From Wickerhamiella versatilis (lineage: Eukaryota): DNA of 64,000 bases. Under the pieces are notes generated by a model, which ran no database searches, was not told the origin of the DNA, and worked only from the letters and a program-made list of their open reading frames with translations. A program made the position numbers and the translations under genes. Shown here in pieces: positions 12,691 through 62,050 of this stretch (its first letter is position 1; the number at the start of each line of letters is the position of its first letter). The DNA is taken from contig JAQOWU010000008.1 in assembly GCA_030867685.1 (NCBI GenBank), positions 1,674,001 to 1,738,000 on the forward strand. The letters run 5' to 3'.

Positions 12691-12749
12691 CGTTCGTGTC
12701 ACCTTGAGATTACTAATTCTCGCATACACTAAATAGATTTAAATAATGT

Positions 12750-14330
12750 TTAGGATAAGCGAGGCTCGTTATCCAGCAGTACCGGCTTAAAGACCTTCGT
12801 ATCCAATTCGCTAAACCAGCGTGAGCCAAGCTTGCTTTGGGGTGTCGAAGAATTGTCAGCCTGCATGCCAGTCATGCCCATTGACGGTGTTGTGCTGCGG
12901 GATGGCACCGGTCTAGTGGGCAATGATGCTTCTATATCAAATTCATCGTCAGAATCGGGTTCTTGAGGTACTCCTGTACGGATACCAAAAACCTCCAACA
13001 TTTGCGCAGTTGTACCACCAAACACAACTACAGTAAGTACAACTACCACGAGAACAGCCGCGCGTAGATCATTCGCATATTCTCCTTCTATTCCCGCCGC
13101 TAATGCAACACCAACTGCACCCCGAAGACCTGCCCAAAAGAGCATAAATTGATATTGTTCGGGAATTTCATCTTCTTCTTGTCCACCAGAACTAAAGTTC
13201 ATCACCTTGTTAATTGCTCTTGAAAGGGGAAAAACTGCGGCATATCGTGAGAGGCAAATGCCAATTGAAGTTACAATGATGAGGAATGGCCGGAATCGTA
13301 GCGAATCCTCTGTGAAAAGCGTGAGCCCTAAGTAAATAAAAATAAAATTTTCACTGAGCTGTGCAAGTAATTGAAAGGTGTACTTGATGGCTATTTGCGT
13401 GCGTCGTGTCATGTTATAATAAGCGTAATGCTTGAGGGTAATTCCGCAGAATAGCAGGGATACTATCCCGGACATATGACATCCATTTGAAAAAAAGTAC
13501 GTACCATATGCAAAAAGTAGCACTAAACATGCTTCAATTTGTGGATAGCGACGCACGCGGGTATGCTTGAGAATGAGAGCGGTGAGAATGCCGATAAGGG
13601 ACCCGATCACCAGAGAAATTGCAAAAGTTATGAGGAAGATGCCAATACCTTTGAAGAGAGAACTCAAGTGCATCGTATCTCCTTTAATCTTTTGAGCAGT
13701 TTCGAAAATAACAATGCATACTGCATCATTGAGAAGTGACTCGCCAAATATAATTGTATAGAGCTTGGGATCCACCTGGTATGTGTTGAATATCGAGAGA
13801 ATAGTTACCGGATCTGTAGCGCTCAATGTTGCTCCCATTGCAATAGCATCAACAAATTGAATATGAATTCCTTCCAGCCCCAACACAGTCCATATATATA
13901 CCAGTATTCCTAATACCATGGTGGCCATGAAGGTGCCAACAAACGCAAATGTCAATATACTAAATATATTGCGGAAAAAGTTTGCCTGGTTCAGCTCATA
14001 TCCTGAATTAAGAATGATGGGCGGAAGCAAAATATTGAAGAAGTAGGAGTGACTGAAGCTTAATTGGGACTGAATAAAATGTCCGGGACTAAGACGAATG
14101 ATTAAACCAACTACCATTCCTGTTCCGATGGACATAACACTTTCATGTACCCCCTGAATGCGCTTTGACTGTAAGTAGTAACTCGTCCATAGAGAGACAA
14201 TCAGAAGAAGAATCACGATAAACAATGCCCAAGACTGGTATATCTCCTCTGTTCCAGGGTCGACTGTACCTTCGCTAGGATTTTGAACATCGGCATCGGT
14301 AGAATCGCGCCTAAACAGCGCTGCTAGCAT
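12750..14330 (-). CDS. NHX1: Endosomal Na+(K+)/H+ antiporter
   Basis: FFNILLPPIILNSGY, LSATDPVTILSIF, IFGESLLNDAV and WAGLRGAVGVALA. Confidence 0.96.
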   Translation of the reverse strand: MLAALFRRDSTDADVQNPSEGTVDPGTEEIYQSWALFIVILLLIVSLWTSYYLQSKRIQGVHESVMSIGTGMVVGLIIRLSPGHFIQSQLSFSHSYFFNILLPPIILNSGYELNQANFFRNIFSILTFAFVGTFMATMVLGILVYIWTVLGLEGIHIQFVDAIAMGATLSATDPVTILSIFNTYQVDPKLYTIIFGESLLNDAVCIVIFETAQKIKGDTMHLSSLFKGIGIFLITFAISLVIGSLIGILTALILKHTRVRRYPQIEACLVLLFAYGTYFFSNGCHMSGIVSLLFCGITLKHYAYYNMTRRTQIAIKYTFQLLAQLSENFIFIYLGLTLFTEDSLRFRPFLIIVTSIGICLSRYAAVFPLSRAINKVMNFSSGGQEEDEIPEQYQFMLFWAGLRGAVGVALAAGIEGEYANDLRAAVLVVVVLTVVVFGGTTAQMLEVFGIRTGVPQEPDSDDEFDIEASLPTRPVPSRSTTPSMGMTGMQADNSSTPQSKLGSRWFSELDTKVFKPVLLDNEPRLS

Positions 14331-14543
14331 GTCTTAGTAATATGGGCTCCGCTACACAAGTTCTAGCTCCGAAACAGCTAAGACTATAATTTATGGAAGT
14401 AAATGCTAGCTAGTTATGATTTGTATTGTTGCCACCTTGTAAGTCCTAAAACTGAAATCAGTTCTTATAATCTTATCGTATCCCTAACTTCAATCAGTCC
14501 TTTGTGTGTCAGCACTAGCTTGTTCTCTATATATTATATATTC

Positions 14544-15851: not shown

Positions 15852-15866
15852 AAATTTCCATTAGTA

Positions 15867-18257
15867 ATGCACCCGCGTGTGCTTGATGCGAAATGGTCTA
15901 AAGTATGGAAATTGCATTCACCACAGAAAGCTCGGGTGCCAGTGGCAGGACCTTGGTACCAGCTTTCTATGTTTCCATATCCCAGCGGTCGGTTGCATAT
16001 TGGACACCTCCGAGTCTACAGTATTAGTGATATTCTAGCACGATTCCGCCGTATGCTTGGATATGATGTTGTACATCCTATGGGATGGGATGCTTTCGGG
16101 CTACCAGCGGAAAATGCAGCTCGTGATCGGCATATAAGTCCATCTAAATGGACTCATGAAAATATTGACACAATGCGATCACAGCTGCAAGCTATGTCCA
16201 CAAGTTTTGACTGGGACAGAGAGGTTATTACTTGCAATACCGACTATTACAAGCACACCCAACTTCTTTTCTTGAAACTTTTGAAAAGAGGTCTTGCCTA
16301 TCGTGCCAAGGCTACTGTAAATTGGGATTCTATAGACAATACTGTTTTGGCTAATGAACAGGTAGATGCCCAAGGTCGTTCTTGGCGATCAGGTGCTATT
16401 GTCGAGCAGAGGGAGCTCGAACAATGGTTCATTAAGACCACGGCGTATGCTTCCGAACTGCTGAGCGGCCTTGATAAACTTGATAACTGGCCTGAGAGCG
16501 TCAAATCACAGCAGCGAAACTGGATAGGAAAATCAGAGGGCTTTGAAGTGAATTTCGGTGAAAACATATGGGTTTATACCACAAGGCCTGAGACGCTGGC
16601 CGGTGTAGAATATTTAGCCGTTGGGTCAGATCATCAAAATCCTGTGCCTGCTACGGTTAGGAATCCGCTTACCGGTAAGGAAATACCTATGGTTACAGCA
16701 GATTATGTCTTGTCAAACCATGGGACTGGTATAGTTATGGGGGTACCGGCACATGACGAGAGAGATTTCGCCTTTTGGAAAGCATATCGGGGCGATGATA
16801 GTGATATTAACAGTGTGTATGAGGGAGTAACTCACTTTCCTTACATTGATAAGGATCTTCCTTTCAACGAATTTTCGTTCTTAAAAGGCTGCACCCTTGA
16901 AGGAGCCCGGGAAAAGCTTATGGATCTACTTGGTCCACATAGAATCCGTAAGTCTGTCGCTTGGCGTCTGCACGACTGGTTGATAAGTCGCCAACGATAC
17001 TGGGGTGCACCCATCCCTGTTGTTCATTGTCGTCAATGTGGCATTGTACCCGTTAATGAATCAGACTTACCAGTGAAGCTTCCGCCTCAAGAAGGTGAGG
17101 CTAAGCCTCTTTCCCATATGAATGAATGGCTACATACGCAGTGTCCATCATGCCATGGACCAGCGAAACGGGATCCGGATACAATGGATACTTTTATGGA
17201 TTCTTCATGGTACTATTTCCGATATCTTGACCCAAAGAACTCTACTGAACCATTCAGTAAGGAGGCAACAAAAGATTTCATGCCAGTACATATGTACGTG
17301 GGTGGTGTGGAGCATGCAATTCTTCATCTTCTTTTTGCTAGATTTATGGCATACTTCTGTCGGAATGAGGGTATGTGGAACCCGTCATCATTGCATGGCG
17401 AACCTTTCGCGCGACTGGTTACACAAGGAATGGTACACGGTCGAACCTTTGTAGATGAAGAAACTGGTAAATTCCTAAAGCCTGAGGAAGTTGATGCAGA
17501 GGGCCGCATTATCGCCACTGGACAGATTGCAAAAATTTCTATGGAAAAGATGTCTAAGTCAAAGCATAACGGGGTCGATCCTGGTAGCATAATTGAAAAG
17601 CATGGTGCAGATGCTACTAGAGCTCTCATCCTCTACTCAGCCCCACCATCGGATGTCCTGGAATGGGATGAACAGAAAATTGTGGGAATGAAGCGCTGGC
17701 TTGGTCGCATTCAGAGTCTTGTAAGCACACTCAACATCTGTTCCACCGAGCGTAAACTTTTGGATACGGAGAAGAGGATTTGGAATGAAAATGTCTTTCC
17801 ACTCTGGAGCCACGTGACGAGTACTCTTTCAGAAGCCACCCTACTGAATACAGTTGTTTCGGACTTAATGAAATTGACTAGAGTTTGTCAATCACTATCG
17901 AATGAATCTAGTATTCTTGCTGTCCCAGCGACAGAGGCCCTTCTCAAAATGCTGGCACCCATAGCTCCTGCAAATGCCGAGGAGGCCTGGCAAAACTTGC
18001 TGAGTAGGCAAAAACGTGATTGGACTTCTGTTTTCGCTGAGAGCTGGCCAAAGCTTCAACTTTTCGACATTAGTTCTCAGGAAAAGAGCGCATTAAAATT
18101 CTCTATTAATGGGCGATTTATAAAGATGATCGATGTCCCGCAAGGTCTTGAAGAGGCTGATGTTCTGCGAATACTCAACGCATCGCAGTACGGGACTTTA
18201 AAAAAGGTTATATATCGACCGGAACGGGGTATTCTATCTCTTGTGGTGGTTAGATAA
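15867..18257 (+). CDS. NAM2: Mitochondrial leucyl-tRNA synthetase
   Basis: MFPYPSGRLHIGH (HIGH), KMSKS, TTRPET and VPAHDERD; HLRVYSISD and SWRSGA are fungal mitochondrial-type variants. Confidence 0.93.
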   Translation: MHPRVLDAKWSKVWKLHSPQKARVPVAGPWYQLSMFPYPSGRLHIGHLRVYSISDILARFRRMLGYDVVHPMGWDAFGLPAENAARDRHISPSKWTHENIDTMRSQLQAMSTSFDWDREVITCNTDYYKHTQLLFLKLLKRGLAYRAKATVNWDSIDNTVLANEQVDAQGRSWRSGAIVEQRELEQWFIKTTAYASELLSGLDKLDNWPESVKSQQRNWIGKSEGFEVNFGENIWVYTTRPETLAGVEYLAVGSDHQNPVPATVRNPLTGKEIPMVTADYVLSNHGTGIVMGVPAHDERDFAFWKAYRGDDSDINSVYEGVTHFPYIDKDLPFNEFSFLKGCTLEGAREKLMDLLGPHRIRKSVAWRLHDWLISRQRYWGAPIPVVHCRQCGIVPVNESDLPVKLPPQEGEAKPLSHMNEWLHTQCPSCHGPAKRDPDTMDTFMDSSWYYFRYLDPKNSTEPFSKEATKDFMPVHMYVGGVEHAILHLLFARFMAYFCRNEGMWNPSSLHGEPFARLVTQGMVHGRTFVDEETGKFLKPEEVDAEGRIIATGQIAKISMEKMSKSKHNGVDPGSIIEKHGADATRALILYSAPPSDVLEWDEQKIVGMKRWLGRIQSLVSTLNICSTERKLLDTEKRIWNENVFPLWSHVTSTLSEATLLNTVVSDLMKLTRVCQSLSNESSILAVPATEALLKMLAPIAPANAEEAWQNLLSRQKRDWTSVFAESWPKLQLFDISSQEKSALKFSINGRFIKMIDVPQGLEEADVLRILNASQYGTLKKVIYRPERGILSLVVVR

Positions 18258-18291
18258 TGTATATAAAAAGCAATCTACTCATTTACCATAT

Positions 18292-19554: not shown

Positions 19555-19742
19555 GGACCTCGCCTAGCAGGTACACAATTTGTCATCACTGGGAATGCCG
19601 CCATTATATAGTTTTATGTCAGGGAAATTACTGTGAGCGGGTTAAACTGGTATTAGACCGCAATGGACGATTATAGGCAATAATTTAGTTTTACTGATGG
19701 TTTTGGACAGAAAATTCACAAAGTGACGTTTATTCATGAATT

Positions 19743-20654
19743 TTATGACAATTTCGCCGTGTTACGCCTGGCTTGGTTTACCCGGGCATTGACCCGATGC
19801 ACATCTTCATCTAGGTCATCCAGCATCTTATTCTGGCGAACAATCTCCTCGTTAATAACATTACCGAGTTCTCGCTGGCGAGAAACTGTGATTCGGAGCT
19901 GCTCAATTTCAGCATCTTGGTTCTCCATAGTCTGCTGCTGGTGGTCCACTAAGCCGTGGTTATTTAGCCGTTTCGTGGTATCTGACTCCCCAAGAACACG
20001 GCCCTGCCGTGGACCATTTCCCTCACCAAACAGACGAACTCGTTCGTTTGTTTTTAAGGTTTCACTGGAGCCATATGAGCTTCTTTGTCCATCTAATCCA
20101 CTTAGGGTTTGCGTATAGTTATCAATCTGGCGCTGGCGACGAGTCCGCTCACCCTGGCCCAAGTTACGGGAGGAGTTCAATAGCTCTTGGAGCTGAGCAG
20201 TGGCAGAATACGCTCTGATTAACTTTTCACGGGCCTGTGTGCCACTCAATCGTTTGACATCCGCAATAATTCGGGATAAGTCGCTCGTTCTTGAAACCCA
20301 CGATGCCCCATCAGCCGACTTGGTGCTCCGGTGGCGCGAGACATCTAGAAATCGTTGGAGGGCTAGTGAATCTGCAAACAAAGGATCCCGGATTAATGCA
20401 CGCAGCATGACTTCAATTGCCATTCTTCTTTCCTCTAATACCTGTTCAGAAGCCCCGAAAGGAAGCCACCGTTTTTGTGGAGGAGGCACCGGACAGACTT
20501 CTGCAACCTCGTACTGCAATTCAGAAGCCAAATTCAAGACATCATTGAACCTATGCTCTACTTCGTAAACATCACCATCACTCAAAGTAACAACGATAGA
20601 GTATAGTGCCGGCGAACCTTTCCTAACTTCAGGTACCGACACACTTGATATCAT
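19743..20654 (-). CDS. VAM7: Vacuolar PX-domain Qc-SNARE
   Basis: N-terminal PX domain (HRFND...EERR...FL) and C-terminal SNARE (QDAEIEQL...[13 protein letters not shown]); no transmembrane segment. Confidence 0.85.
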
Positions 20655-20662
20655 TAGTCATT

Positions 20663-21232
20663 ATGGTTCGACCGATTGTACTTAGTGGTCCAAGTGGGGC
20701 AGGAAAATCTACCTTGCTTAAAAAGCTCCTGGCTGATTATCCTGGAAAGTTTGGATTTAGTATTTCACATACGACGCGACAGCCTCGTGCAGGTGAATCT
20801 GATGGAGTACAATATCATTTTACCACTATCCCTAAGTTCGAGCAATTGATTGCTGATAAAAAGTTCATCGAATGGGCTAAATTTGGCGGCAACTTCTACG
20901 GGACCACTATTCAGGCTGTCGAAAATGTTTCGAAGGAGGGACAGGTGTGTATTCTGGATATTGATATGCAGGGTGTCAAAAGTGTCAAAAACACCTCTCT
21001 CAACGCTGCCTTCATTTTTGTAGCACCGCCAAGCATGGAAGATTTGCGTAAGCGTCTTGAGGGACGTGGCAGTGAAACACCAGAATCACTGGAGAAGCGA
21101 TTGGCTCATTCTCATGGCGAGATGGCTTATTCCAAAGAGCCTGGTAGCTATGATCTCGTCATTGTCAACGATAATCTTGAGAATGCATATCAACAGCTTA
21201 AAAATTTCCTAGAAAAAATCGATGTGGTATAG
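20663..21232 (+). CDS. GUK1: Guanylate kinase
   Basis: [31 protein letters not shown] and ILDIDMQGV. Confidence 0.96.
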
Positions 21233-22411: not shown

Positions 22412-22560
22412 GTTATATGTTTGCATTACTACCTATGCAAGTTAAATGTGTTGAGATTCTCTCTCAATCAATATTTTAAATTTCAAGAACATTACTTTCA
22501 AGCACGATTCCAGATATACTACTGTTCTTTAATGTTGCACGTCCGATAACACGTTTACTA

Positions 22561-25372: not shown

Positions 25373-25408
25373 TGCATGTCATAAGCAAGTCAGTCCTGAG
25401 TATCGTAT

Positions 25409-26623
25409 ATGCACTTGATCATATTAGTGCATGGGATGTTTGGCAAGCCCGCCCACCTTCAATGCATGCATAAGGAGTTTTGCTCTCAGCTTAGAGGGCA
25501 AAATTGTGTGGTTCACCTGGCCACGGCGAATTCTGCACTAGGTACCTTCGATGGTGTGGAGGCATGCGCTAGGCGCACCCTTTCAGAACTCGATGTGCTA
25601 ATGAAGATTTATAGCGACGAGGGTCATTCCATTACCTCCATCAGTATTGTGGGTTACTCGCTTGGAGGGCTCATAGCACGCTTCTTGATAGGACTTCTTG
25701 AAGATAGGAGGTTCTTTGATTCAGTGAAGCCTTTCCTTTTTGCAACCTTTGCTACGCCCCACGTAGGCACTGTTAAGTATCACAATGGGCCCCTCGCGGC
25801 CATTGTTAATGCAATTGGAGCCAACTTGCTTGGACCCTCTGGTCGCGACCTCTTCAACAAAAACGAGACTCTTTGTGAGCTTGCAAATCCTAAAGGAACT
25901 TCAATGAGTGGGTTAAAGAAATTCCCTCATCTATATCTTTTTGCTAATGCTGTTAATGACCGTACAGTGCCGTTCTGGACGGCGTACATCACGGATAAAT
26001 CACCATTCGAGGTGGGATCTGTTGACATTGTATTTTCTAACAAACCAATTATAGACTCCGAAAAGTCGCGGTGGTCGCCAAAAAAGAAACCCAGTGAAAC
26101 CAGTACCAAACGTAGGCTTTTGATTTCCTTGGCTATCTGTGTGTTTGGACCAATACTTCTCTCCGTCATGACCTTTGGAACGTTATTTGCCTACGCGAAG
26201 AAATGGTTAGGACTAGTATCCACTAAGTATGAGCATAAAATACTCACTGAAGACATTATGGCTGCAATATCATCAGCTGTTGAAGAAGTGCTGGAAGAAA
26301 ATACATCCTCTTATAATGTAAATACACAAAATGAGGATAAGGTCTGCACTTCTGGGCTCCCCCAAAAAGACTCCCTTCTCGAAATGCCAGAGTCGATGAT
26401 AGATCTTTGCGATGCGCGCATTCCTGTAACTAGACGGGTCAAACAGCAAATTGATACTTTGAACGAACTTCCTTGGCACAAGTATATGGTTAAGCTTCAG
26501 CGAAGCCATTCACATGCTGAAATAGTCAACAGAAGGAATGCATCTCAGGGTGAAGGTCTTCTAATTATCCGGGCTTTCGCAAAACAGTTCTCGAAGCATG
26601 TACTTGAGCAGGGCGAACTGTAG
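25409..26623 (+). CDS. DUF676 putative serine lipase (paralog 1)
   Basis: HLIILVHGMFG, GYSLGG nucleophile elbow, FATPHVG, NAVNDRTVPF and C-terminal HAEIV. Confidence 0.88.
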   Translation: MHLIILVHGMFGKPAHLQCMHKEFCSQLRGQNCVVHLATANSALGTFDGVEACARRTLSELDVLMKIYSDEGHSITSISIVGYSLGGLIARFLIGLLEDRRFFDSVKPFLFATFATPHVGTVKYHNGPLAAIVNAIGANLLGPSGRDLFNKNETLCELANPKGTSMSGLKKFPHLYLFANAVNDRTVPFWTAYITDKSPFEVGSVDIVFSNKPIIDSEKSRWSPKKKPSETSTKRRLLISLAICVFGPILLSVMTFGTLFAYAKKWLGLVSTKYEHKILTEDIMAAISSAVEEVLEENTSSYNVNTQNEDKVCTSGLPQKDSLLEMPESMIDLCDARIPVTRRVKQQIDTLNELPWHKYMVKLQRSHSHAEIVNRRNASQGEGLLIIRAFAKQFSKHVLEQGEL

Positions 26624-28693: not shown

Positions 28694-29831
28694 TTCCAGT
28701 CCAGTGTGGAGTCGAACTATAGGTTGTTATTAATAAATCGTCTATTACGTAGCTTCCCAGGATCAGTAGATTGCGCTTATGGCTGAATAGAGCTTAGCAC
28801 CAATTTTCTGGCCAAGAACGGTTGAAATATGCCTGCTTGCAAAATTATTAGTGTTTTGTTATTTAGCAACCACTTTTTTTTGCTCTGCAGTTAAAACGAT
28901 TTAAACAACATAACGTGAAAGTAGTCGGTTTCAACTTTTCTCTTCCATTTTTTTTTCATTATACTGCAATATTTTCGCCCATCTTAGCTACCTCCCCTCC
29001 AATGTTTGAGAAGTAGTGTAGAGAGGGCCGAAATCTTATTCTAGCCGAGACATGCTGCACCGAGAAATTTCGCTTCTAGAATATCCATTGTCCAAAATGT
29101 TTAGCCATAAACCTTTTCAGCACTACCCCATTAAATCTAATTGCACTTGCTTCACATAATACTCAACTCAATTCCGAGCTAGCTTTACAAAGAAGGAAAT
29201 ACCCTGTCCTGACTGTGTGACACAAGTACGATTACGAGATCCTCGCGTGCTTCTCAATTCCAACCACTTTTGGCAGGTAAGATTGGCTGAATCAAAGTAG
29301 TTATCTATATAGCTTACTTCTCTTTTAGGATCCGATGAGTATCAATAAATAGTAGCATTGTGGTTAGTTCATAATGAGGCTGGTAAATTTAGAGTCGTTT
29401 AATCATAGCCTAACCCTATCAGGCCCAACTGCACGTCACCTGTAGGCAGGTCTGAACCAATCTACAAAAAAAAATGTAAAAAATTTCATCTAATCTCAAG
29501 CTTTTTCATAACTGAATTTTAATTTATTTCTATCAGTCATCGATGATCATCGAAACCCAAATTAGCTTGTCCGAAAATGGGAAGAGACCGCAGTTTTGGG
29601 GATTACCTCAGCAGGTCCTTCCACTGGTTCCTGTAGCATAGAGGCAGCCACTCTATTCGTCCTGCTGCTGGCGTGGCCCTTGAAAGTCAAAAGGTACAAC
29701 TTTTCTAGTTGTGTCAACTTTCGAGGTCATCTCTCAACCCGTCCCGACGTTTCTGTCGTTGCAACCCAACAGCATCAACTTTAACAAAGACACTCTTTTA
29801 CGATTGATTCAGTTCTAACACTCTCTTTACC

Positions 29832-32086: not shown

Positions 32087-33280
32087 ATGGGGGTTCATTT
32101 GATTGTACTTGTTCATGGAATGTGGGGATCACATACTCACTTTGACTATATCTGCGACCAATTGTCATTGAGAGGTGCTCAAGAATATGTAAATGGTAGC
32201 TCCGCTCCCCTCGACAAGGATGTGGTGGTTTATCGAACCAGAGGAAATACTGGGTACCTCACATACGACGGGATAGACATCTGTGGTCATCGAGTTGCAA
32301 AGGAAGTGATTGAAGTTATAAAAGATGTGCATCCCACTGAATTCAGTATGGTTGGCTACTCTATGGGTGGACTCATCTCCCGCTTTGCTGTCGGTATGCT
32401 CTACGCCGAAGGTATTTTCAATGACGTGAAGCCCCGTACGTTCACGTCATTTGCATCACCTCATATTGGTTGCAATGTCCTGGGAACGAGTTTGGGTAAG
32501 CGTCTGTTTAACTTTATTGGTTCCTGGAGCATGGCTCGAACTTCCCGGCAGGCCTTCCTGTGCGACCGTTACACTATTTCAGGGACACCTTTGTTCAAGC
32601 ATATGACTGATGAAGGTACTCTATTTGTAGAGGCATTGAAACTATTTCAAAAGAGAGCACTCTATGCTAACATCCTCAATGATCATAGATGTGATTTTTA
32701 TACTGCGGCATCTGAAACAACGAATCCTTACAATGACATAGCATCTTTCGACTTACAAGGCCATTGGGCTGCTGAGAAATACGCACCTATCATCTTGGAC
32801 CTCTCGAAGCCCCCTAGGAAGGTCGAGTTTCAGCATGTGAGACAGAGTCTCTGGAAAAGATTAGGACGCTCTTTGGATGTGGTGTTTAGAGTTTCCATCG
32901 TATGGCCGCTGTGGTTCGTCGCGTTTTTAATCAATGTTGGGTACCAAGGTGTAGCCTCATGGCTTCGAACCCAAAAATATGTGAAATCGGGAATATTCCT
33001 GCCTAACTACGACGGCACAGAAGAGATGGCTGTTGATATGGTGGAGGATATATATAATACAGTCTCAGACCCGCATCTGCTTCAGTTAACTCCACTCATG
33101 AAGAAGATTGTGAGGCAGTTGAATTCCCTGGGCTGGGAAAAGTATCCAGTTCGAATTACAGCTGATAAAAATACTCATGCAGCAATTATTGTACGCGTTC
33201 CCAGACAAAAATCGTTCTGGGAGGGTAAGGTCGTCGTCAATCATTGGATAACCGAGATTCTTTGTCTCCCTGACAGTTGA
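32087..33280 (+). CDS. DUF676 putative serine lipase (paralog 2)
   Basis: HLIVLVHGMWG, TYDGID, GYSMGG, FASPHIG, YANILND and THAAIIVR. Confidence 0.88.
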   Translation: MGVHLIVLVHGMWGSHTHFDYICDQLSLRGAQEYVNGSSAPLDKDVVVYRTRGNTGYLTYDGIDICGHRVAKEVIEVIKDVHPTEFSMVGYSMGGLISRFAVGMLYAEGIFNDVKPRTFTSFASPHIGCNVLGTSLGKRLFNFIGSWSMARTSRQAFLCDRYTISGTPLFKHMTDEGTLFVEALKLFQKRALYANILNDHRCDFYTAASETTNPYNDIASFDLQGHWAAEKYAPIILDLSKPPRKVEFQHVRQSLWKRLGRSLDVVFRVSIVWPLWFVAFLINVGYQGVASWLRTQKYVKSGIFLPNYDGTEEMAVDMVEDIYNTVSDPHLLQLTPLMKKIVRQLNSLGWEKYPVRITADKNTHAAIIVRVPRQKSFWEGKVVVNHWITEILCLPDS

Positions 33281-33544: not shown

Positions 33545-34624
33545 ATGGTTGCCATTGAAATCTCATGGGATGATGGAATCAAGCACGATTCTGTGAAATT
33601 GTCTGCGGAGTTCACTAATTGGATACCTACGACACTTCCATACGTAGGTGGAACGCGTTATATGTCGACATTCAAGGCTACCCCTGGCGAGCAGTTTAAA
33701 TACCTCATTGATTCTGAATGGAAACTATCGTCAGTACTACCTGTTTCGACAGACGATATTGGAAACGAGAATCACTACGTGGTAGAGTCCCTTATGGTTC
33801 CCACTCATCGCGGAGAGGCTGCTGCTGCTGCAGGGCCTGCTGTTGCAGCAAATACCGCGTCAGCGCCGGCAGGAGTAGAGAAACCATCAGGAACACAGGA
33901 TGCAAGCAGATCCCTTGTTGATCAGGAGCCTAAGTCTGGGCCAGAAACTACAACAAGCGAGATTAATCCCAGCTCTATAACCGCGACAGAGGCCGGGCTG
34001 GGTTCGCAACCTAAGACAACTACGGAGCCGGAGACTCTATCCAAGGGCACAACTGAGCTAGATTCAGCGACCAAAGGAATCAAAGGTGAAGCGGATCCTG
34101 TGACCAAGGCTAAGACCGAAGGGAAGAGTGGGCTGGAGTCTGCAACAGAAGAGGCCAAAGGTGAAGTCGATCCTGTAAACAAAGCTAAGACTGATATCAA
34201 GTCTAAAGCCGACGAGAAGACTGGACTGGAATCTGAAGCTACAGGTGAAACGGATCCTGTGAGCAAAGCTAAGGCTGACGCCAAGTCTAAGGCCGAAACT
34301 GAGGTCAAGGAGGCGTCTGCAACTGCAGATAAATCACTATCTAAGGCTAACCCGGCAGACACAACCGCTTCTGATGTAAAGCAGAAAGTTGGGTCCACAG
34401 GTCTCGCCGGGGAACATGAGGGGACTGCTAGTACTTCTACACCTGAAGTTTCAGGCACCTCTACCAATGAGAAAGCCAAAGAGGCCCTGCCTGAGAAACC
34501 TTTGGCTAAGGACCTATCAAAGGAAGTGCCGTCTAAAGAGAAGCAGGTAGCCAATGAGAAGCCCTCGCCGAGTGAGGAAAAGGAGACCGGCGGTGGCTTT
34601 TGCAAGTGCTGTATTATCTCTTAA
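33545..34624 (+). CDS. AMPK-beta/CBM48-like domain protein (Mdg1/Crp1-like) with low-complexity stalk and CaaX tail
   Basis: ISW...VKLSAEFTNW...QFKYLIDSEW...DDIGNENH matches the CBM48-like pattern; the protein ends GGGFCKCCIIS. Confidence 0.75.
   Translation: MVAIEISWDDGIKHDSVKLSAEFTNWIPTTLPYVGGTRYMSTFKATPGEQFKYLIDSEWKLSSVLPVSTDDIGNENHYVVESLMVPTHRGEAAAAAGPAVAANTASAPAGVEKPSGTQDASRSLVDQEPKSGPETTTSEINPSSITATEAGLGSQPKTTTEPETLSKGTTELDSATKGIKGEADPVTKAKTEGKSGLESATEEAKGEVDPVNKAKTDIKSKADEKTGLESEATGETDPVSKAKADAKSKAETEVKEASATADKSLSKANPADTTASDVKQKVGSTGLAGEHEGTASTSTPEVSGTSTNEKAKEALPEKPLAKDLSKEVPSKEKQVANEKPSPSEEKETGGGFCKCCIIS
34085..34290 (+). repeat. Three degenerate internal repeats (GExDPVxKAK)
   Basis: ggtgaa-NNN-gatcctgt...aa(g/a)gctaag units start at 34085, 34160 and 34244. 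Confidence 0.75.
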
Positions 34625-40021: not shown

Positions 40022-40563
40022 CTACCGACGCGTGCAGAGTTTTTTCCCGGCACTGACTAAACTTACTCCCCAGACAAACTTATCTTCCCTTACCTTCCTA
40101 TGTCGCAATAAGGCTGGCAGAGAAAAAAAAATCATAAAATCCAAATTTAACATGAGCACAACATTTTACGAAACCTTTGTAAAGCTTTTGAATGTCCTAA
40201 ACTTTTTAGCACTCCCTAGTGAATAAAAACGGTATTCTCCGGTCCGCTGATATGAGTAACCGAGGGATATCAATTGCTCTTAGTCTACCCTATTAACTTT
40301 TCGTCATGAGGACCCATTGAATTCTAGAATATTCACCTCAAGCAAAGTCTTTATTATATTCACGTGGTAGATAAGCTTGCCCTCAGTATAGATCATTTGT
40401 GAAATTGGGTACTACCTAAGCCCACATTTTCGAGGTCTAATCTAATTTCTTTTTTTTCCTCGTGGTTTGTGGTTGTCCCAACAACAATCCTAATGTGCGC
40501 ACGAACATTCCTCACCTAAACCAATTATTACAAATCGGGATAATTCTAATGTCTTTGTCATTA

Positions 40564-40640: not shown

Positions 40641-41090
40641 ATGCCGACCCGTTTCTCAAACACCCGCAAGCATCGCGGACACGTTAGCTCAGGTCACGGT
40701 CGTATCGGCAAGCACCGCAAGAACCCTGGTGGTCGCGGTATGGCTGGTGGCCAGCATCATCACCGTACCAACCTTGACCGATACCACCCAGGTTACTTCG
40801 GTAAGGTCGGTGACCGTCACTTCCACCTCTTGAAGAACCGTGAGTGGCGCCCAGTTCTTAACTTGGACAAGCTCTGGAGTCTCATCCCTGGTGAGGACCG
40901 CGAGAAGTACCTTTCTACTGCTTCTGCCGCTGCGGCTCCAGTGATTGATACTCTGGCTGCCGGCTACGGCAAGGTCCTCGGTAAGGGCCGCATCCCCACT
41001 GTTCCTGTTATTGTCCGTGCCAGATTTGTCAGTGAGAGCGCCGAGAAGAAGATCAAGGCAGTTGGCGGTGCTGTGGAGCTTATTGCCTAA
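40641..41090 (+). CDS. RPL28: 60S ribosomal protein uL15 (L28/L27a, CYH2)
   Basis: [16 protein letters not shown]...[13 protein letters not shown]...[10 protein letters not shown]; strong codon bias; intronless. Confidence 0.98.
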
Positions 41091-41398
41091 GCAGAGCGCC
41101 GGCCGCAAATCTAATCTATCTAAATAAAAATCCTTCAAATTATTTCGGTATGCTAGCAAGCAGTCATTAGGCTTTTTTTCGGCTGATTTATGGGACATGT
41201 GATATATGATTCCCATTCTAATTGGTATTTAGAATGTAAATCCGTATTTCCGCAAGCGCTAATGCGAGTGGCACATCATCCCACAACCTCTAGCTGACGA
41301 GGTAGTGTAAAAGAAGCGCAAGACTCTATCGTCAATTACTTGCATAATGAAATGAAAACAATAAATTAGGGAATATACTGGCTAAAGTGGCGGTTAAG

Positions 41399-43117: not shown

Positions 43118-43768
43118 TCAATTAATAGCTGAAAGGATCTCTTTCCGCAAAGATGTAAGAAGCTTACCAAAGTTTGGCGATCTGCCGAACTCAGATTGTA
43201 TCTTATCTCGCACTTTTGGGTTGCAATCTGGAGCAACAAGCTGTACTGTGCTAGAAACAGGATTCCACCGTAGCGAAAATTCACCTCCAATACTATTAAA
43301 CTGAATGCGTATACCACCTTCGACAGGATGCGAAATGCTTATGTCAAGCGCCCGGCTATAAAGCGCTAACTTTTTGTTGATAGCCATCAATGCAGGCTCT
43401 ACTTCTGTCCTCTGCTGTGATATGGCAGTTTCCAGAACCGATATTTGTTTTCTAGCTAGTTCAATCTGTTTCGCCGTCTCTTCCGAATCATGCTCATCTT
43501 TTTCCCGTAAAAGTTGTGGTCTTAAGCTCATTTTTGTGAGCTCAATTGCACTGTCAGTCTCGTTCTCAACTTGAGCTTTAGTTTCAGCGCGTAGCCGCGT
43601 CAATTCAGCCTGACGCATCTCCACACCCAATTGAAGATCTGAAAGTTCACGCAAAGACTCATTAAACTGCAACTTTAGGCCTCTCACCTCGTGTTCAGCC
43701 TCAAGAATATTTACGTCGAGCTTTTCGACTGTTCGGCGAACATCATCATACACAACTGACGCGTCCAT
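43118..43768 (-). CDS. SPC25: Probable kinetochore Ndc80-complex subunit Spc25
   Basis: N-terminal coiled coil followed by an RWD-like segment (LYSRALDISI...IRIQF...FGKLLTSLRK). Confidence 0.55.
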   Translation of the reverse strand: MDASVVYDDVRRTVEKLDVNILEAEHEVRGLKLQFNESLRELSDLQLGVEMRQAELTRLRAETKAQVENETDSAIELTKMSLRPQLLREKDEHDSEETAKQIELARKQISVLETAISQQRTEVEPALMAINKKLALYSRALDISISHPVEGGIRIQFNSIGGEFSLRWNPVSSTVQLVAPDCNPKVRDKIQSEFGRSPNFGKLLTSLRKEILSAIN

Positions 43769-43961
43769 TCTGCTGACTCATGAGTATAGTTCGACGGTTA
43801 TATGTCTTCAGGTTTCATCGATTTAATTTTTTTTACGATTATATAGATGCTGCGATAGTCCAAATATTTTGCTCAATCCCGAGTCTGCCTTGACCAGTCT
43901 TTTCTGAACCCAAATTCTTAACGTCAAATGAGAAATTTGTTTATACATTGAGTAAGCAAAC

Positions 43962-44609
43962 ATGTGGACAGCTGAGGAAGCTGTTCCTGTTGATATCAGG
44001 AATCGGCTAGAGGCCTTAGCAAAATCAGATGCTTCTAAGCAGTCCTATATTCCTGCTTTTCTCGAAATCATAAGCCTTCTGAAAAGTCAAAGGCGTACTG
44101 GCTGGATCGATAAGCAGCTCCCCAACCCGGAGTCTATAAGCGACCATATGTATAGAATGGCTATAATCACGATGCTTACGGCCGACAATACTCTTAATAT
44201 TGGACATTGCATGCGTATTGCCCTGTGTCATGATATGGCAGAGGCCCTTGTAGGTGATATCACTCCATACCAGGGAGTATCTAAGGAAGAGAAACATTAT
44301 CGTGAGCAGACTGCCATGGAGTACTTGCGAGATCTTATCAAGAAGTTCAATCCTGATGCTGCAGAGCAAATATATAATGCATGGGTGGAATATGAGACAG
44401 TTAGCTCGCCTGAGGCGAAGCTGGTCAAAGATATTGATAAGTTTGAATTACTGTGTCAGAGTGACGAGTACCAAAGGCAGTACCCAAATCTAGATTTATC
44501 GGATTTTAAAGGAGTACGGGACCTAATCAAACTTCCTGAGGTTCAGGGCTGGGCTGAAGGTCTTTCACAGTACTCACAAATTATCGAGCCCAAAGATAAT
44601 GCGAGCTAG
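43962..44609 (+). CDS. YGK1: HD-domain 5'-deoxynucleotidase (Ygk1/HDDC2-like)
   Basis: LKSQRRTGW, ESISDHMYRM, HDMAEALVGDITP and VKDIDKFE. Confidence 0.88.
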   Translation: MWTAEEAVPVDIRNRLEALAKSDASKQSYIPAFLEIISLLKSQRRTGWIDKQLPNPESISDHMYRMAIITMLTADNTLNIGHCMRIALCHDMAEALVGDITPYQGVSKEEKHYREQTAMEYLRDLIKKFNPDAAEQIYNAWVEYETVSSPEAKLVKDIDKFELLCQSDEYQRQYPNLDLSDFKGVRDLIKLPEVQGWAEGLSQYSQIIEPKDNAS

Positions 44610-45851
44610 CATGTGACGCATAATTAACGCAAAAATGGCCCAAAGTGCTTGTAGAATTAGGAGTCTTGTGGCCAGTTCGTCCTCACGTAGAGGCTTGCTA
44701 TGTACAAGGACCAAAGTAATTAGCGTGAGGTTAGACATCTCAATCTTAGACTCAGATTTCCATAGTTTCAGAAGTCCTAATTTCTCCATCAATTCCAAAA
44801 TTCGAAGCTTCGACTTGGGCAAATCGGTGATATCAGCGCGGGATGGAAGTAATTTCCCTGTCGCAGGATCTAATAGTGGCATTCTATGCCGCGGACAGGG
44901 AACAATATGGAATAACTGCGGTATGGAATAGATAAAATTGGCGACCTGAGGCCCAAAAAGAAATAGCATTGTCTTGCTAAAATGGCCCAATATACCCACC
45001 ACCGCAAACACCATGCCAGATAGGTAGCAGTAAGTGTCACCAACAAACCCTTGTGCTGGATACCAATTATAACGAAGCAATGCCAGTGAGCCACCTAAGA
45101 ATGGCAGTAAGATATAAGAGCTTAGCAAATGAGCGTGGACAGCAGGGGTATCGTTTGGAAGAGCTATCAAATATAGCAAATCGTTCACGAGAACTCCAAC
45201 ACCAACCACAACAGACTGGCCTACTTCAAGGCCATTAACACCAGCGTAAATATTGATGCAGTTGGTGCAGAAAATAGAAAATGCCCCCATGTAGGCGTAA
45301 TAGATCCAACCAAGGTCTACTGCAGGTCCAATGATGGATCCAACCCGAAGAAATGCTGGTATTACAACACGTGTAACGCCAAAATCCACGTAGTAAATAA
45401 CTAGCATTGGGATGGCTGCAATAGCCGGAAGAAAGAATTTATGCCGCCAACGTAAATCGAACAAGTCATCGCAGACACCAAGAACTAGCATCGACTGTAG
45501 GCTTAAGATTCCAGATAAATACTCAGCCAGTTTTGAGTGGGGAAAGTGCCCATCCCCACCGGCGGCTAGATACTTGAAGAACATCGATGGTACGAATGTC
45601 ATAAGACTGAGTATATATATACACCCAACCAGTGCACCAAGCATCTCTGGAAGATCTTTGGAGTTCTTTTTCAGTCTGTCTCGTCCGATGAGCCCTGCCT
45701 TTATCAGAGCAGGTGAAGCACGAGGCAGCATATGCTCAACAACTAGGTAGTTCAAAACAGCCAAACCCAGAGATGAGAATATTGGCTTACCCCATTGATT
45801 GAAAATAAGGGCAAATGCTGCCGTCATTATAGCGGCACGCGCCCAAACCAT
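44574..45851 (-). CDS. ALG7: UDP-GlcNAc:dolichyl-phosphate GlcNAc-1-phosphate transferase
   Basis: DDLFDLRWRHK, FCTNCINIYAGVNGLEVGQ, FVGDTYCY and PCPRHRMP. Confidence 0.95.
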   Translation of the reverse strand: MVWARAAIMTAAFALIFNQWGKPIFSSLGLAVLNYLVVEHMLPRASPALIKAGLIGRDRLKKNSKDLPEMLGALVGCIYILSLMTFVPSMFFKYLAAGGDGHFPHSKLAEYLSGILSLQSMLVLGVCDDLFDLRWRHKFFLPAIAAIPMLVIYYVDFGVTRVVIPAFLRVGSIIGPAVDLGWIYYAYMGAFSIFCTNCINIYAGVNGLEVGQSVVVGVGVLVNDLLYLIALPNDTPAVHAHLLSSYILLPFLGGSLALLRYNWYPAQGFVGDTYCYLSGMVFAVVGILGHFSKTMLFLFGPQVANFIYSIPQLFHIVPCPRHRMPLLDPATGKLLPSRADITDLPKSKLRILELMEKLGLLKLWKSESKIEMSNLTLITLVLVHSKPLREDELATRLLILQALWAIFALIMRHMLARIIFGLDNL

Positions 45852-45880
45852 CGTCACCACAACAGCTTGATTACGTTAGA

Positions 45881-50787: not shown

Positions 50788-51444
50788 ACCAAAGGTGATA
50801 AACTGTCAATAACGTCCAGGTCTCGCAAGAGAGCTTGTTTTAGTAATGTCAATCTGGCATCTATCGTGAGGAAGCCCTGACCCCTAGTCCTAACCCTTGA
50901 CAGTGGGACTCTCCCACTGCTCCTGTGCAGTACTTATAATTATTACTTGGGCATTATTAGCTACGGCTAGATAGATTATGGTAGATCTATCTTTTTGTTT
51001 GTTTGTTTGTTTTTTCAAGAAGTCGAATTCGCCTGTGATTTCTACAACTTGACTGAGTGGAGAAGAAAGATGTAAGCACGCACACCATTCTCTGAATATT
51101 TGCTGCTGCGTCACATATCATGATAAGTTTTGTTAATTTTGCGGTAATGAAATGCATCCACTATGAAATAATGACCGCTACCTCGCTCCCCACCTTATAC
51201 TTAATGCTAGTGTTGCTACGCTTCGTCTTGATTTAGAAACGTATTAGTTAGAGAAAAGAAGGGAGGGGTCAAGCACGTATCTTGCATTAAACTTTTATGA
51301 ACACACAGTGGCTTTAACTATAGTTCTGCTAATGTTATTCAATTAATTATTTCATATTAAGCTGTTAGGAAAATCCGGGGAAATCTACGTCAGTCCATAT
51401 TTCCCAAAAATCCCTGACAGACACGCGTCGTTACTAAGCGGCTC

Positions 51445-53865: not shown

Positions 53866-54034
53866 CTAGTACATTTCCACATGAATTACCATACCTAGAG
53901 CATATACATAAAAATTGATTTAATAGGTGTTCTTTCTTTAGTTTTAGAAAACTTCTTTTCAGCACCTAAAAATTCCGATATCAGTGATTAATTAAGCTGC
54001 ATATTATTAGAACAGCTTATAATTTGTTCAATCA

Positions 54035-54415: not shown

Positions 54416-54517
54416 TTATATTTTAATTCTCCTAAATCTTTTATTTTTCAGGAGGAGCCTCTTTTCGATCGCGAAATTTAAATATGTGACTAGAATATAT
54501 ATATACGTTCTAAGAGC

Positions 54518-55876: not shown

Positions 55877-56519
55877 TTTTCAAACGGGGGTTTGTTTCAA
55901 TGTGCAAGAGTAAGTATATAACAACGACGGATGACAATGAAGCTCTAGAAGTACGTTAGAGCAATGCACGTTTGGGTATAGTTGAGAGAATGAAACTTTG
56001 GGGGTATTAAGTTCTATTGTTACAACAACAGAAGACATTGGGAGACTCCTAGTATATGTATCATCCAATCTATTCAATTATTACATGTTTAACATGCGTG
56101 TTTCGCATAAAATACTGGTCAAAGTTTCAAAAGTTGAAGCCTAAAGTCCCAATAAGTCATCTGGCAGTGACGCATCACGCATGCTTACGCGCGATGAAGC
56201 TGTAATTAATATTTATAGTATTATATGTATACGCCAAGAATAAATTTCTAGCATAGAAGTTCAAGGATAAGGGAGATAATCATCCTCCCCCACGATGATA
56301 AGGTTAGACTTCAAGTTGTCATATTGTTTCCAATTTCAGAATAAATGATACGCAAGATGCTCACTAGTAAGCTAAGAAGAAGTAATTTATAATTATTAAC
56401 ATGTCTTTTTCCTAGATAATTGCAATTTAGTACCGTATATTCTTGGTTACTTTCAATGAGAGAAGAAAATATGGCCAGAGCACATGATCTCTGCTTTAGT
56501 CACATTCGTAATCATCACT

Positions 56520-56855: not shown

Positions 56856-57067
56856 AGTTTGAATCCACCTAATATGTGTTTCAGAGTTTAACGTTTAGAT
56901 TTCGAGCAATATGATTCCATATTACAGTACGTTTCTGGAAAATGACGCGAGTCGTTTCAGAATTAATGCCTCTCGATGACAATAAAAAACGCAAAGCATT
57001 TTATAAAATTCTATTTGTCTCAGAAATTAAGAAATAGGATTTTTTTTCTTTGCTATATATATCCTTA

Positions 57068-59653: not shown

Positions 59654-59925
59654 GCTGGCGGATGACTAATGTAGTCATCTGGGCAGACATGGATTTATTT
59701 GTTCGAAATCAAGATTTCCTGGTTTAAATTGAGAAGGTAAGTTCTAGTAACACTTGTTAAACTATAAGTACACGTTCCATTCACCGATTTCTACCTATTT
59801 TAGAATACTTTTTTGTGAGTGTAAATTAGGGTATTTAACAAACTAAGCTCGAGATGTTCATAGCAGCTTACAGTCAGGAAGATTAAAACGATAAAACAAA
59901 ACCAAGTTTATTGACTATATGATCT

Positions 59926-61557
59926 TTAATAAATACCATCTTCGAGTATACGACGTGAGTTGGTCGACTCCGTTCCTCCAAGAATCACCCGCATCGTGGG
60001 ATTAGATTTGTTAAATTCGGCAACAATTCTTGCTTCTTCATAGGTGACCCCGCCAAGAATGAATACAATGACATTTTCAGGTGGAACATTTTCTGGAGCC
60101 TGCAGGCCTCCGCTTTGATCTCTAGGCTTCACAACAGGATACTTAGTACGAGGGAGCCTACCTTTTGTCAATTGTCCAAGTAGAGTTTCTAGCAAAGGCT
60201 TGTGTTGGGTGAAAACATTTTCAACTCCTCTAAGCCCTTTAAGACCTTGTTGAGCGCGCAATAGAATCGACCCCTCATTAAATAAATCTTCCTGAGGGGC
60301 CGCCTTCAGGACACCTTCGAGATTGGCACGGAGCTGTGGGTCGGGAGAGGTAGCATCAAGCATCCCAAGTAATGCCTGAATGGCACAGTGCGGATGAGAG
60401 GCATAGTGTAAGCCATATAGTGCCACAAGCCGGTACTTTACTATAGCCGAAAGAGCTTCATTAGCTAACATTTGTTGAAGCTGGCGGAGATCTTCCTGGT
60501 GATTTCCGCTGCAGGCCAAATTTTGTTCAAGCTCACTAACAGCTAGTAGATGTGTTTGATCAACTATGCGACTCAATTCGCCGACAAGAGCAACATGCTT
60601 CGACACATTACCTCCTAATCGGCGGAATTCTGGATAATCCTCAATGAAACGCTTCATATCTGCTACAGTATCAATGTTCCCATTTGTCTTGGATTTTGAC
60701 TGGTAATGTTGGACATACTCTCGTACTGCAGCGCCTAGATCGCCAAAATTAAGATACATGGCTCTGGCGAAAAAGCTGTCTTGATCCTGTGAAAGTACAA
60801 TCTCCTGATGATCCGGGGATATATCTGGAGCACCACTAAGATCAACTCGATTATTGGTGATTCCTATAAGCTCATCAACCATAGCCTGATATGTCCAATG
60901 CGTTAGAAGTGGGGTGAGCGGATCATTCAGGCGGTCAAGAACAAGGAGAAGTGGCGACGTGTCTCTCTTCGGCGCACCGTCAAAGAGACCTGCATTTTCA
61001 CTGAGCAGGTCACTAATTTGCCTGGCAAAACGAGAGCTTCGCGGGCTGTTGGCATCATGGACAATTTCAGGACGAAGTTTCGTACTTAGAAGTGTAGACA
61101 GAAGCGAATCCAGAGCTCGGTCACTGGGTGGTTGAAACGTTCCACTTGTAAAGAAATCACGATTAATTTTGTAAAAGTCACAAAACATCTCTTGTACCCT
61201 TACTACCGCTTCATGGTCGTCCGCCTCAGCAAGCCGCTCGAGTTGGCTGTTACGAACAACATTGCTAAACACTATGGAGTAACTCGCATAACGTGGTATT
61301 CTGAGTTCTTCAACAAGCTGATTGATTGTTTCTGAGCTTGGTCGTACAAATGCAACACACCCCAAGTGTCTCATCTTCTGACGAGCTGGATTGTCAAGCC
61401 TGTCTGTGAGAAAGACGTCATTCTTTAGAAGTGTCGACTGGGTGGCAATCAGGGATAGCATCCCAGTTGTCTCTGCATCAAGCAGCAGAATTTTGGCCTT
61501 CTCGTCGCCCTCCACAAGACGGTCCACATAGCCAGCTGTGATGCGAGAGAGGTCCAT
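59926..61557 (-). CDS. VPS45: Sec1/Munc18-family protein Vps45
   Basis: LERLAEADDHE, DPLTPLLTHWTYQAM, LGGNVSKHVALVGELSR and GVENVFTQH. Confidence 0.95.
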   Translation of the reverse strand: MDLSRITAGYVDRLVEGDEKAKILLLDAETTGMLSLIATQSTLLKNDVFLTDRLDNPARQKMRHLGCVAFVRPSSETINQLVEELRIPRYASYSIVFSNVVRNSQLERLAEADDHEAVVRVQEMFCDFYKINRDFFTSGTFQPPSDRALDSLLSTLLSTKLRPEIVHDANSPRSSRFARQISDLLSENAGLFDGAPKRDTSPLLLVLDRLNDPLTPLLTHWTYQAMVDELIGITNNRVDLSGAPDISPDHQEIVLSQDQDSFFARAMYLNFGDLGAAVREYVQHYQSKSKTNGNIDTVADMKRFIEDYPEFRRLGGNVSKHVALVGELSRIVDQTHLLAVSELEQNLACSGNHQEDLRQLQQMLANEALSAIVKYRLVALYGLHYASHPHCAIQALLGMLDATSPDPQLRANLEGVLKAAPQEDLFNEGSILLRAQQGLKGLRGVENVFTQHKPLLETLLGQLTKGRLPRTKYPVVKPRDQSGGLQAPENVPPENVIVFILGGVTYEEARIVAEFNKSNPTMRVILGGTESTNSRRILEDGIY

Positions 61558-62050
61558 GTAAGCCTTATGTAAAGACGGTCAAGAATATTTACTCCACAAC
61601 TGACCCAGGATCTTTCCGTGTTGACAGCAAGGAGTGGTGCCTGAAAACAAGAATTCCCCTCTATATGCCAATCTGTGGTATCGTGCCGGAAATAAACAGG
61701 GAGGGGGAGATGAACAATTCTTGAGTGGGACACACTGGCGTTCCAATTAGTGCTCTAGCGTTTCACTTGGAATTGTGAATATGCCAAGACAAAGCCAATA
61801 CAGATTCAGTTCAGGGTGTAAAACAAGAACAAAAACAAGACAGGAATATTAAAATGGTCTTTCTGTGATACTATATGATTACATACACCCTCTCTCGTGG
61901 ATGTAATTGCAACAAAATTATTTGAATGGGGTCAGACCATATCATTGAGGGCTGATTCGTTTCTAATTGAAGCAAGCACATGGCTCAAAGAGAGGGTCTC
62001 ATAATGCCAATAGCCAGAAAATGCCTGGCTGAGTAATAGTAAAGTTAGCA

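Follow-up and report, generated by a model that had tools for sequence, protein, structure and literature searches.

We analysed a 64-kb stretch of Wickerhamiella versatilis DNA (contig JAQOWU010000008.1, positions 1,674,001 to 1,738,000; here called the window, with coordinates counted from its first letter), in which a palindromic 7-mer, T(T/G)A(C/G)T(A/C)A (TKASTMA in ambiguity code), recurs next to the start codons of unrelated housekeeping genes. The window has a G+C content of 45%, and 43 non-overlapping open reading frames (ORFs) of at least 90 amino acids (aa) make up 82% of it. Pfam matches point to a set of housekeeping genes, comprising PIG-M, mitochondrial carriers, Uso1, SMC, a Na/H exchanger, UCH, LeuRS, PX, guanylate kinase, HIG1, IGPD/HIS3, GH17, GDI, PNGase A, HD, arrestin_C and adaptins, and further identify a Ste12-like factor, Asterix, Sec1 and a Rab (Ras), while tRNA and Rfam scans of the whole window returned no match. 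The genes are packed tightly, in line with the compact genome assumed by an earlier first-pass annotation: divergent ATG pairs are separated by 8, 29 (45852-45880), 36 (25373-25408) and 72 bp, and the shortest tandem spacers measure 15 bp. Both starts bordering the 8-bp divergent spacer (20652-20665) are backed by the positions of their Pfam domains, as the Pfam match of the guanylate kinase begins at residue 2 and that of the PX domain, in the opposite ORF, at residue 28 (profile position 7); start codons are likewise supported by domains that begin at residue 9 (Ras) and at residues 17 and 20 (adaptins). With divergent ATGs only 8, 29 and 36 bp apart, promoters or leaders must overlap the coding sequence of the neighbouring gene.

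Concentration of the palindrome next to start codons

All 14 sites that the first-pass annotation had listed were recovered with the same sequence and coordinate, and the ATG positions quoted for them coincide with ORF starts (Table 1). Most of the gene names given there are backed by Pfam, whereas the ORF called SPC25 (43118-43768) has no Pfam match. In total, TKASTMA occurs 25 times in the window, the 11 occurrences missing from the earlier list being divided between ORFs (seven) and non-coding DNA (four). Across the window as a whole the pattern is not enriched (25 against 35.7 expected, with 98 of 100 shuffles reaching at least 25), as one would expect of a motif whose variants all carry stop triplets.

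The excess appears where the DNA is non-coding and close to an ATG. Non-ORF DNA with 6-nt margins contains 17 sites against 9.4 expected (P = 0.0125, dinucleotide shuffles). Upon quantifying the zones upstream of the 43 ATGs against 1000-2000 dinucleotide shuffles, we obtained 13 sites within 60 nt (2570 bp; 1.79 expected), a count that 0 of 1000 shuffles reached, as well as 9 sites within 30 nt (1350 bp; 0.87 expected) and 7 within 15 nt (759 bp; 0.34 expected), neither of which was equalled by any shuffle. Measured in non-ORF DNA from the motif centre to the nearest ATG that it lies upstream of, the sites number 8 at 0-15 nt (0.58 expected), 2 at 16-30 nt (0.47), 3 at 31-60 nt (0.90), 1 at 61-100 nt (1.06), none at 101-200 nt (2.08) and 1 at 201-1500 nt (3.55), so that the bins from 61 to 1500 nt together hold 2 sites against 6.7 expected. 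Beyond 60 nt from any ATG, non-coding DNA has 4 sites where about 8 are expected, and in long spacers the palindrome sits at the ATG end (34991, 40054, 59663 and 62030). Downstream of stop codons, the 15-, 30- and 60-nt zones contain 0, 1 and 2 sites respectively, and not one of these belongs to a 3' flank alone; divergent spacers account for seven sites and tandem spacers for six, and the convergent spacers of the window contain none. Both halves of the window are enriched within 60 nt (5 sites against 0.82 expected, and 8 against 0.92), and 13-14 of the 43 genes, about one in three, carry the palindrome. The site at 56496 is left out of the 13 ATG-proximal sites because it lies within its ORF when that ORF is read from the first ATG at 56484. 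Overall, measured against shuffled DNA, 3' flanks and distal spacers, we take the TKASTMA excess close to start codons to be genuine within this window, with chance as an unlikely alternative.

Searches that ranged over other patterns led back to the same palindrome. Among 576 palindromic 8-variant 7-mer patterns, TKASTMA ranked first at both 30 and 60 nt (Poisson P ~1e-7). De novo, TTACTAA/TTAGTAA was the top exact 7-mer in the 60-nt zone (6 against 0.7 expected) and TAGTAA the top 6-mer (9 against 2.3), and a free search of 10^7 patterns composed of bases and two-fold codes gave TKASTAA as the best (11 against 1.05, P = 1.7e-8). One gene model deserves mention with these statistics. A 149-aa ORF at 40641-41090 (+), by eye a ribosomal protein uL15 (RPL28-like) without introns, has a longer ORF of 175 aa antisense to it at 40689-41216 (-) that lacks a Pfam match, so that calling the longest ORF picks the wrong strand. 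The statistics on non-ORF DNA with 6-nt margins, pattern ranking, word counts, flanks, fixed-stop shuffles, free search, window halves, one-mismatch copies and upstream ATGs were obtained with the antisense ORF in the gene set; once RPL28 is put in its place, the zone counts stay at 13, 9 and 7 sites and the counts by distance do not change either.

Table 1. Copies of the palindrome listed in the first-pass annotation (first 14 rows) and further non-coding copies, with their position relative to neighbouring start codons.
Sequence	Coordinates	Position relative to ATG	Setting
TTACTAA, flanks A..T (9-bp palindrome)	12710..12716	27 nt upstream of SMC-family (SMC6) ATG 12683 (-)	66-bp tandem spacer
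TTAGTAA	14334..14340	3 nt from Na/H-exchanger (NHX1) ATG 14330 (-); 62 nt from UCH ATG 14403 (+)	72-bp divergent spacer
TTAGTAA, flanks A..T	15861..15867	last A is the A of LeuRS (NAM2) ATG 15867	15-bp tandem spacer
TTAGTCA, flanks A..T	20654..20660	between PX-domain (VAM7) ATG 20654 (-) and guanylate kinase (GUK1) ATG 20663 (+)	fills 8-bp divergent spacer
TTACTAA	22555..22561	last A is the A of HIG1/RCF1 ATG 22561	
TGAGTAA	34991..34997	36 nt upstream of IGPD (HIS3) ATG 35034	ATG-proximal end of 409-bp tandem spacer
TGACTAA	40054..40060	32 nt upstream of GDI-family (MRS6) ATG 40021 (-)	ACGCGT (40028-40033) between site and ATG
TGACTCA	43774..43780	5 nt from ATG 43768 (-) of ORF 43118-43768	followed by TGAGTA, a near-palindromic extension read by eye
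TGAGTAA	43949..43955	6 nt upstream of HD-domain ORF (YGK1) ATG 43962	
TTAGTAA	50840..50846	52 nt upstream of arrestin-like ORF ATG 50787 (-)	
TTACTAA	51431..51437	7 nt upstream of gamma-adaptin (APL4) ATG 51445	ACGCGT (51423-51428) 2 nt upstream of the site
TTAGTCA	56496..56502	17 nt upstream of in-frame second ATG 56520	inside Asterix-like ORF if read from ATG 56484
TGACTAA, flanks A..T	59663..59669	9 nt upstream of gamma-COP (SEC21) ATG 59653 (-)	one-mismatch GTAGTCA at 59671, 1 nt downstream
TGAGTAA	62030..62036	14 nt upstream of Rab (YPT6) ATG 62051	overlapping one-mismatch ATAGTAA at 62036
TGAGTAA	40253..40259	>200 nt from both ATGs; not ATG-proximal	619-bp divergent spacer
TTAGTAA	47611..47617	82 nt from ATG 47529 (-); beyond the 60-nt zone	
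TGAGTAA at 63552, TTAGTAA at 63822	63552..63828		non-coding, ORF-poor end of window

Several other features of the window stand apart from the palindrome statistics. The 3' ends of two convergent ORFs, 43962-44609 (+, HD) and 44574-45851 (-, glycosyl transferase family 4), share 36 bp (44574-44609). Two DUF676 (putative serine esterase) paralogues, 25409-26623 and 32087-33280, lie on the same strand 5.5 kb apart, and ORF 33545-34624, whose sole Pfam match is a weak AMPK glycogen-binding module, contains tandem 75-nt coding repeats at 34041-34303 with 43-nt sub-repeats that are 77-81% identical. Unusually for so dense a window, two stretches of 1.1-1.3 kb each (28694-29831 and 62654-64000) lack both ORFs of at least 90 aa and matches to tRNAs or Rfam; the second of them contains two of the non-proximal palindromes. 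Finally, a small gene that has escaped annotation may be represented by a 76-aa ORF at 1812-2042 (+), situated in an 819-bp divergent spacer; the word TGACGTCT (1813-1820), a one-mismatch copy resembling a cAMP response element (CRE), overlaps the ATG of this ORF.

Sequence class of the sites and their company

The sites resemble the elements bound by Yap-type basic leucine zipper (bZIP) factors more closely than those of Gcn4. Among the 13 proximal sites, six read TTASTAA, six are TTA/TGA hybrids and one is TGASTCA (Gcn4-type), and the presence of a TTA/TAA half-site in 12 of them fits a Yap-type preference over a Gcn4-type one; of the in-ORF copies, five of eight are TGASTCA. The 8-bp form TKACGTMA (TTACGTAA/TGACGTCA class) has no exact copy anywhere in the window, and one-mismatch copies of this form, which corresponds to the A type of Yap response element (YRE-A) and to the CRE, number 60 against 69 expected. 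The flanking base is A (5') or T (3') at 14 of 26 half-sites (binomial P = 0.009), amounting to a weak A/T preference that lengthens four sites to 9-bp palindromes. We take such a flank preference to be a bZIP trait; it resembles the optimal Gcn4 site ATGA(C/G)TCAT. Strand bias was absent, with the central base in gene sense being G in eight sites and C in four and the hybrids running both ways, and the orientation-independent occurrence that had been proposed for the element is thus borne out. Taken together, the TTA half-sites, the A/T flanks and the lack of strand preference fit a dimeric bZIP protein reading DNA rather than a signal acting at the RNA level.

Known YREs in Saccharomyces cerevisiae are upstream activating sites of stress regulons that lie ~100 bp or more from the ATG. 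The placement in the window differs, as 8 of the 13 sites fall within 15 nt of an ATG and three share a base with it. By sequence, the match to the AP-1/Yap consensus named in the first-pass annotation was confirmed: the elements given for Yap1 in one report include TGACTAA, TTAGTCA and TTACTAA (PMC6545440), and TGA(C/G)TAA is given as a Yap-type element in another (PMC8450079). Our sites are identical in these variants to YRE-O, the element of S. cerevisiae Yap1/2/5/7 and of Pap1 and Cap1 in other yeasts, with which they also share the 7-bp spacing of overlapping half-sites, the palindromic form and the preference for TTA half-sites. They depart from it in their peak at 0-15 nt from the ATG, their presence at ~30% of unrelated housekeeping genes and the absence of the 8-bp YRE-A form. 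With the Gcn4 element of general amino-acid control, TGA(C/G)TCA, the sites have in common the palindromic bZIP architecture and a location upstream of the HIS3 homologue (34991); unlike it, they include the pure TGASTCA only once among the 13 proximal copies, the HIS3 site itself is the hybrid TGAGTAA, and pure copies are found mostly in ORFs.

A second activator-type word keeps the palindrome company. Boxes reading ACGCGT, which is presumably the MBF-bound MluI cell-cycle box (MCB) and as such an ordinary, regulon-specific site, occur 2-22 nt upstream of three ATGs (SMC6-like, MRS6-like and APL4), and a fourth lies in codons 2-4 of another gene. These boxes (12685-12690, 40028-40033, 43759-43764 and 51423-51428) account for 4 of the 10 in the window and lie within ~25 nt of an ATG. 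As the palindrome is present in all four of these promoters, ACGCGT and the Yap-like palindrome together may form a composite element.

Relatives were compared mainly at the protein level. For HIS3, the best named relatives (Starmerella bacillaris, Wickerhamiella sorbophila, Sugiyamaella lignohabitans and Clavispora lusitaniae) are budding yeasts at 71-73% identity, which by this one protein marks the source as a member of the Saccharomycotina without a close relative among the named ones; closer proteins exist at 84%, 78% and 77% identity, as do near-identical strains. At RCF1, the reading frame stays open for 22 codons ahead of the ATG (22495-22560). In a near-identical relative (P0011) an ATG stands there, giving a 164-aa RCF1 with a 22-residue extension (...ITRLLM) that runs through the palindrome and matches the upstream codons of the window; this relative is too close to inform on conservation.

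Weighing the explanations

Our favoured reading, which we hold at about even confidence and which rests on the sequence of the sites and their setting, is that they are probably genuine sites for a dimeric Yap/AP-1-type bZIP factor and a frequent building block of extremely compressed promoters. We prefer common Yap-type sites of this kind over a dedicated element for positioning the transcription start site (TSS), although the two are not exclusive. Several points weigh against it. Its basis is one 64-kb window with ORF-based gene models, and the motif was picked after that window had been viewed. In the 10^7-pattern search, 4 of 40 mono-nucleotide shuffles were as extreme as TKASTAA (i.e., a significance of ~0.1), and with at most three degenerate positions 5 of 282 shuffles matched TKASTAA and 9 of 282 matched TKASTMA, giving a corrected significance of ~0.02-0.03; moreover, in real control regions of the same size other patterns reached equally small P values, the best being 1e-6 to 1e-11. 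The carrier genes form no obvious stress or amino-acid regulon, HIS3 excepted, and Pfam revealed no bZIP domain among the ORFs of the 64-kb window. Between a site 3-15 nt away and its ATG, a core promoter and 5' leader in the classical order cannot be fitted, so that the classical Yap/Gcn4 mode cannot apply unchanged. Lastly, when metagenomes were scanned with the gamma-adaptin protein, the 11 loci obtained were 33-63% identical and lay on contigs of 1.2-5.7 kb, with no close relative among them; the palindrome is present in 3 of the 11, and the closest locus (L010) lacks it upstream of its gene.

Could the recurrence be chance combined with post-hoc choice, given that some degenerate word always recurs in 2-3 kb of promoter-proximal DNA? 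We regard this as unlikely, though with a weight that the shuffles and control regions just described lend to it, together with the window-wide TKASTMA count, which is below expectation. Against it, the best de novo pattern is the same palindrome, a known transcription-factor consensus instead of an arbitrary word; features outside the pattern definition also speak for a real signal, namely the A/T flanks, the enrichment of both window halves, the lack of sites exclusive to 3' flanks and the depletion of distal spacers. The top words of the control regions, furthermore, themselves look like real signals or coding repeats, with [AC]TA[CT][AC]TA leading in 3' flanks and runs of T in distal spacers. 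The former, the top de novo word in the 60-nt zones past stop codons (20 against 3.5 expected), in our view resembles the yeast poly(A) efficiency element UAUAUA/UACAUA. The first-pass annotation had leaned towards a general core-promoter or TSS-positioning element, and such an initiator-like sequence would fix bidirectional starts a few bases from the ATG, allowing leaders of 0-15 nt and divergent ATGs 8 bp apart. It would account for the peak at 0-15 nt, for the three ATGs that share their A with the last base of the motif (15867, 20654 and 22561) and for the motif that fills the 8-bp spacer between two verified ATGs. Compatible with it are the absence from the window of any TATA-like element at a fixed distance from the palindrome, and a slight scarcity of out-of-frame upstream ATGs (42 genes; 9 against 13.4 expected within 30 nt, compared with 53 against 58.2 at 31-148 nt), which weakly favours leaders of 30 nt or less. 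Nevertheless, we consider it a doubtful, if possible, explanation. Concentration at start codons was upheld, yet a general role is not supported, with only 13-14 of 43 genes carrying the element and one-mismatch copies unenriched within 30 nt (13 against 11.6 expected), though mildly raised within 60 nt (34 against 23.8, 9 of 500 shuffles). Distances to the ATG range from 0 to 56 nt with no fixed register, and the palindrome is symmetric and free of strand bias, whereas known initiators are directional. In addition, the MCB boxes occupy the same positions; because they lie equally close to ATGs, position alone is no sign of a core element, and the closeness can be a by-product of promoter compression.

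Two further explanations place the signal outside promoter function, and both are highly improbable. One sees in the palindrome a translation-level device that packs stops in several frames and on both strands before the ATG, thereby closing upstream frames of overlapping transcripts. Each variant does hold at least one stop triplet on at least one strand, and the ORF-delimiting in-frame stop falls inside the motif in 6 of 14 gene-site pairs. However, the 60-nt zone contains about as many single stop triplets as expected (TAA 126 against 131, TAG 81 against 89.5 and TGA 91 against 89.5), and of the words made of two stops, adjacent or one base apart, TGA[CG]TAA and TAGTAA alone exceed expectation. 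When the ATG and the in-frame stop were held fixed, the 14 observed sites compared with 2.31 expected (0 of 3000 shuffles), which also excludes a bias arising from the definition of an ORF as starting at the first ATG after a stop. Across 42 genes, the first gene being dropped for lack of flank, the distance to the first upstream stop (medians 22.5, 35.5 and 35 nt) is not shorter than under a random model, and genes with the motif close all three frames no sooner (73.5 against 66 nt). We therefore rejected the stop-codon trap on the unenriched triplets, the fixed-stop shuffles and the frames that are closed no sooner. The other explanation, to which we give equally little credence, holds that the sites belong to a neighbouring gene or to RNA processing, as a 3'-end/poly(A) signal, an Nrd1-type (GUAA) terminator, a branch point (TACTAAC) or a dispersed repeat. 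The branch-point box is indeed resembled by TTACTAA, AGTAA is found 18 times in the zone against 7.7 expected, and six sites lie in tandem spacers that also need a terminator. Yet no palindrome is exclusive to a 3' flank, which led us to reject the 3'-end signal, and seven sites stand in divergent spacers compared with none in convergent ones. The branch point was dismissed on the grounds that no site reads TACTAAC and orientations are mixed. By a tally from word counts, about half of the AGTAA copies sit in full sites, and the Nrd1-type idea fails because full sites largely account for the half-site excess. The dispersed repeat, finally, finds no repeat family covering the sites, and the lack of any tRNA or Rfam match gives the RNA-level explanations no further footing.

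Compressed promoters in a free-living yeast

The core of the sites is T(T/G)A(C/G)TAA, the 7-bp form in which the half-sites overlap, and its flanks show a weak preference for A/T. If the sites are indeed bound by a Yap-type factor, a bZIP dimer occupying this core would help to open or mark a tiny promoter. Their closeness to the ATG would then reflect promoter compression and very short 5' untranslated regions (UTRs) with no dedicated initiator function, a preference for compression that we infer because MCB-type boxes occupy the same positions. Two arrangements are conceivable: transcription may start at the site or a few bases from it, so that leaders would be very short, or its start may lie farther upstream, in many cases within the gene next door, which would place the site in the transcribed leader. 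More speculatively, and with considerably less confidence than in the favoured reading, a Yap-type bZIP factor may have been recruited in this lineage of budding yeast as a general promoter organiser that, through its palindrome against the start codon, opens chromatin and sets bidirectional starts a few bases from the ATG. Such an organiser would allow a microsporidia-like compaction of promoters in a free-living yeast, with divergent ATGs 8 bp apart and near-leaderless mRNAs.

In the textbook yeast promoter, an activator site lies upstream of the core promoter and the leader spans tens of bases. The local arrangement in the window is unlike that layout, in that activator-type sites (the Yap-like palindrome and the MCB) abut or overlap ATGs. 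Sites shared by many unrelated housekeeping promoters are familiar from Reb1, Abf1, Rap1 and Cbf1 and from the HomolD box of Schizosaccharomyces pombe, and general regulatory factors and HomolD-type boxes open chromatin, insulate transcription units or replace the TATA box. To our knowledge, none of these involves an AP-1-type bZIP site, and their sites stand upstream of the TSS and not against the ATG. The nearest functional analogue is the start-codon-adjacent signal of microsporidia. In Encephalitozoon cuniculi, whose compact genome likewise has promoter-type motifs (CCC-like and AAATTT-like) right upstream of the coding start, 5' UTRs of <7 nt, overlapping transcription and a motif that can be used for checking start-codon calls have been described (PMC2803860). 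The parallel has its limits: the microsporidian motif is not a palindromic bZIP site, microsporidia are obligate intracellular parasites as opposed to a free-living budding yeast, and the signal is reported for most genes there, compared with about a third here.

As a sequence, the palindrome is the known AP-1/Yap site; its placement in a free-living yeast against the ATGs of housekeeping genes that are unrelated to each other, at ~30% of them, is something of which we found no description in the literature library searched. Should the pattern be confined to this window, it would amount to an ordinary cluster of bZIP sites. Should it hold genome-wide, the palindrome would be of practical help when start codons are called in genomes of this kind, and the yeast would offer a tractable free-living model of initiation, both of transcription and of translation, under an extreme compaction that has been studied mainly in parasites. 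A palindrome that hugs the ATG in this way hints at how promoters shrink as genomes become compact.

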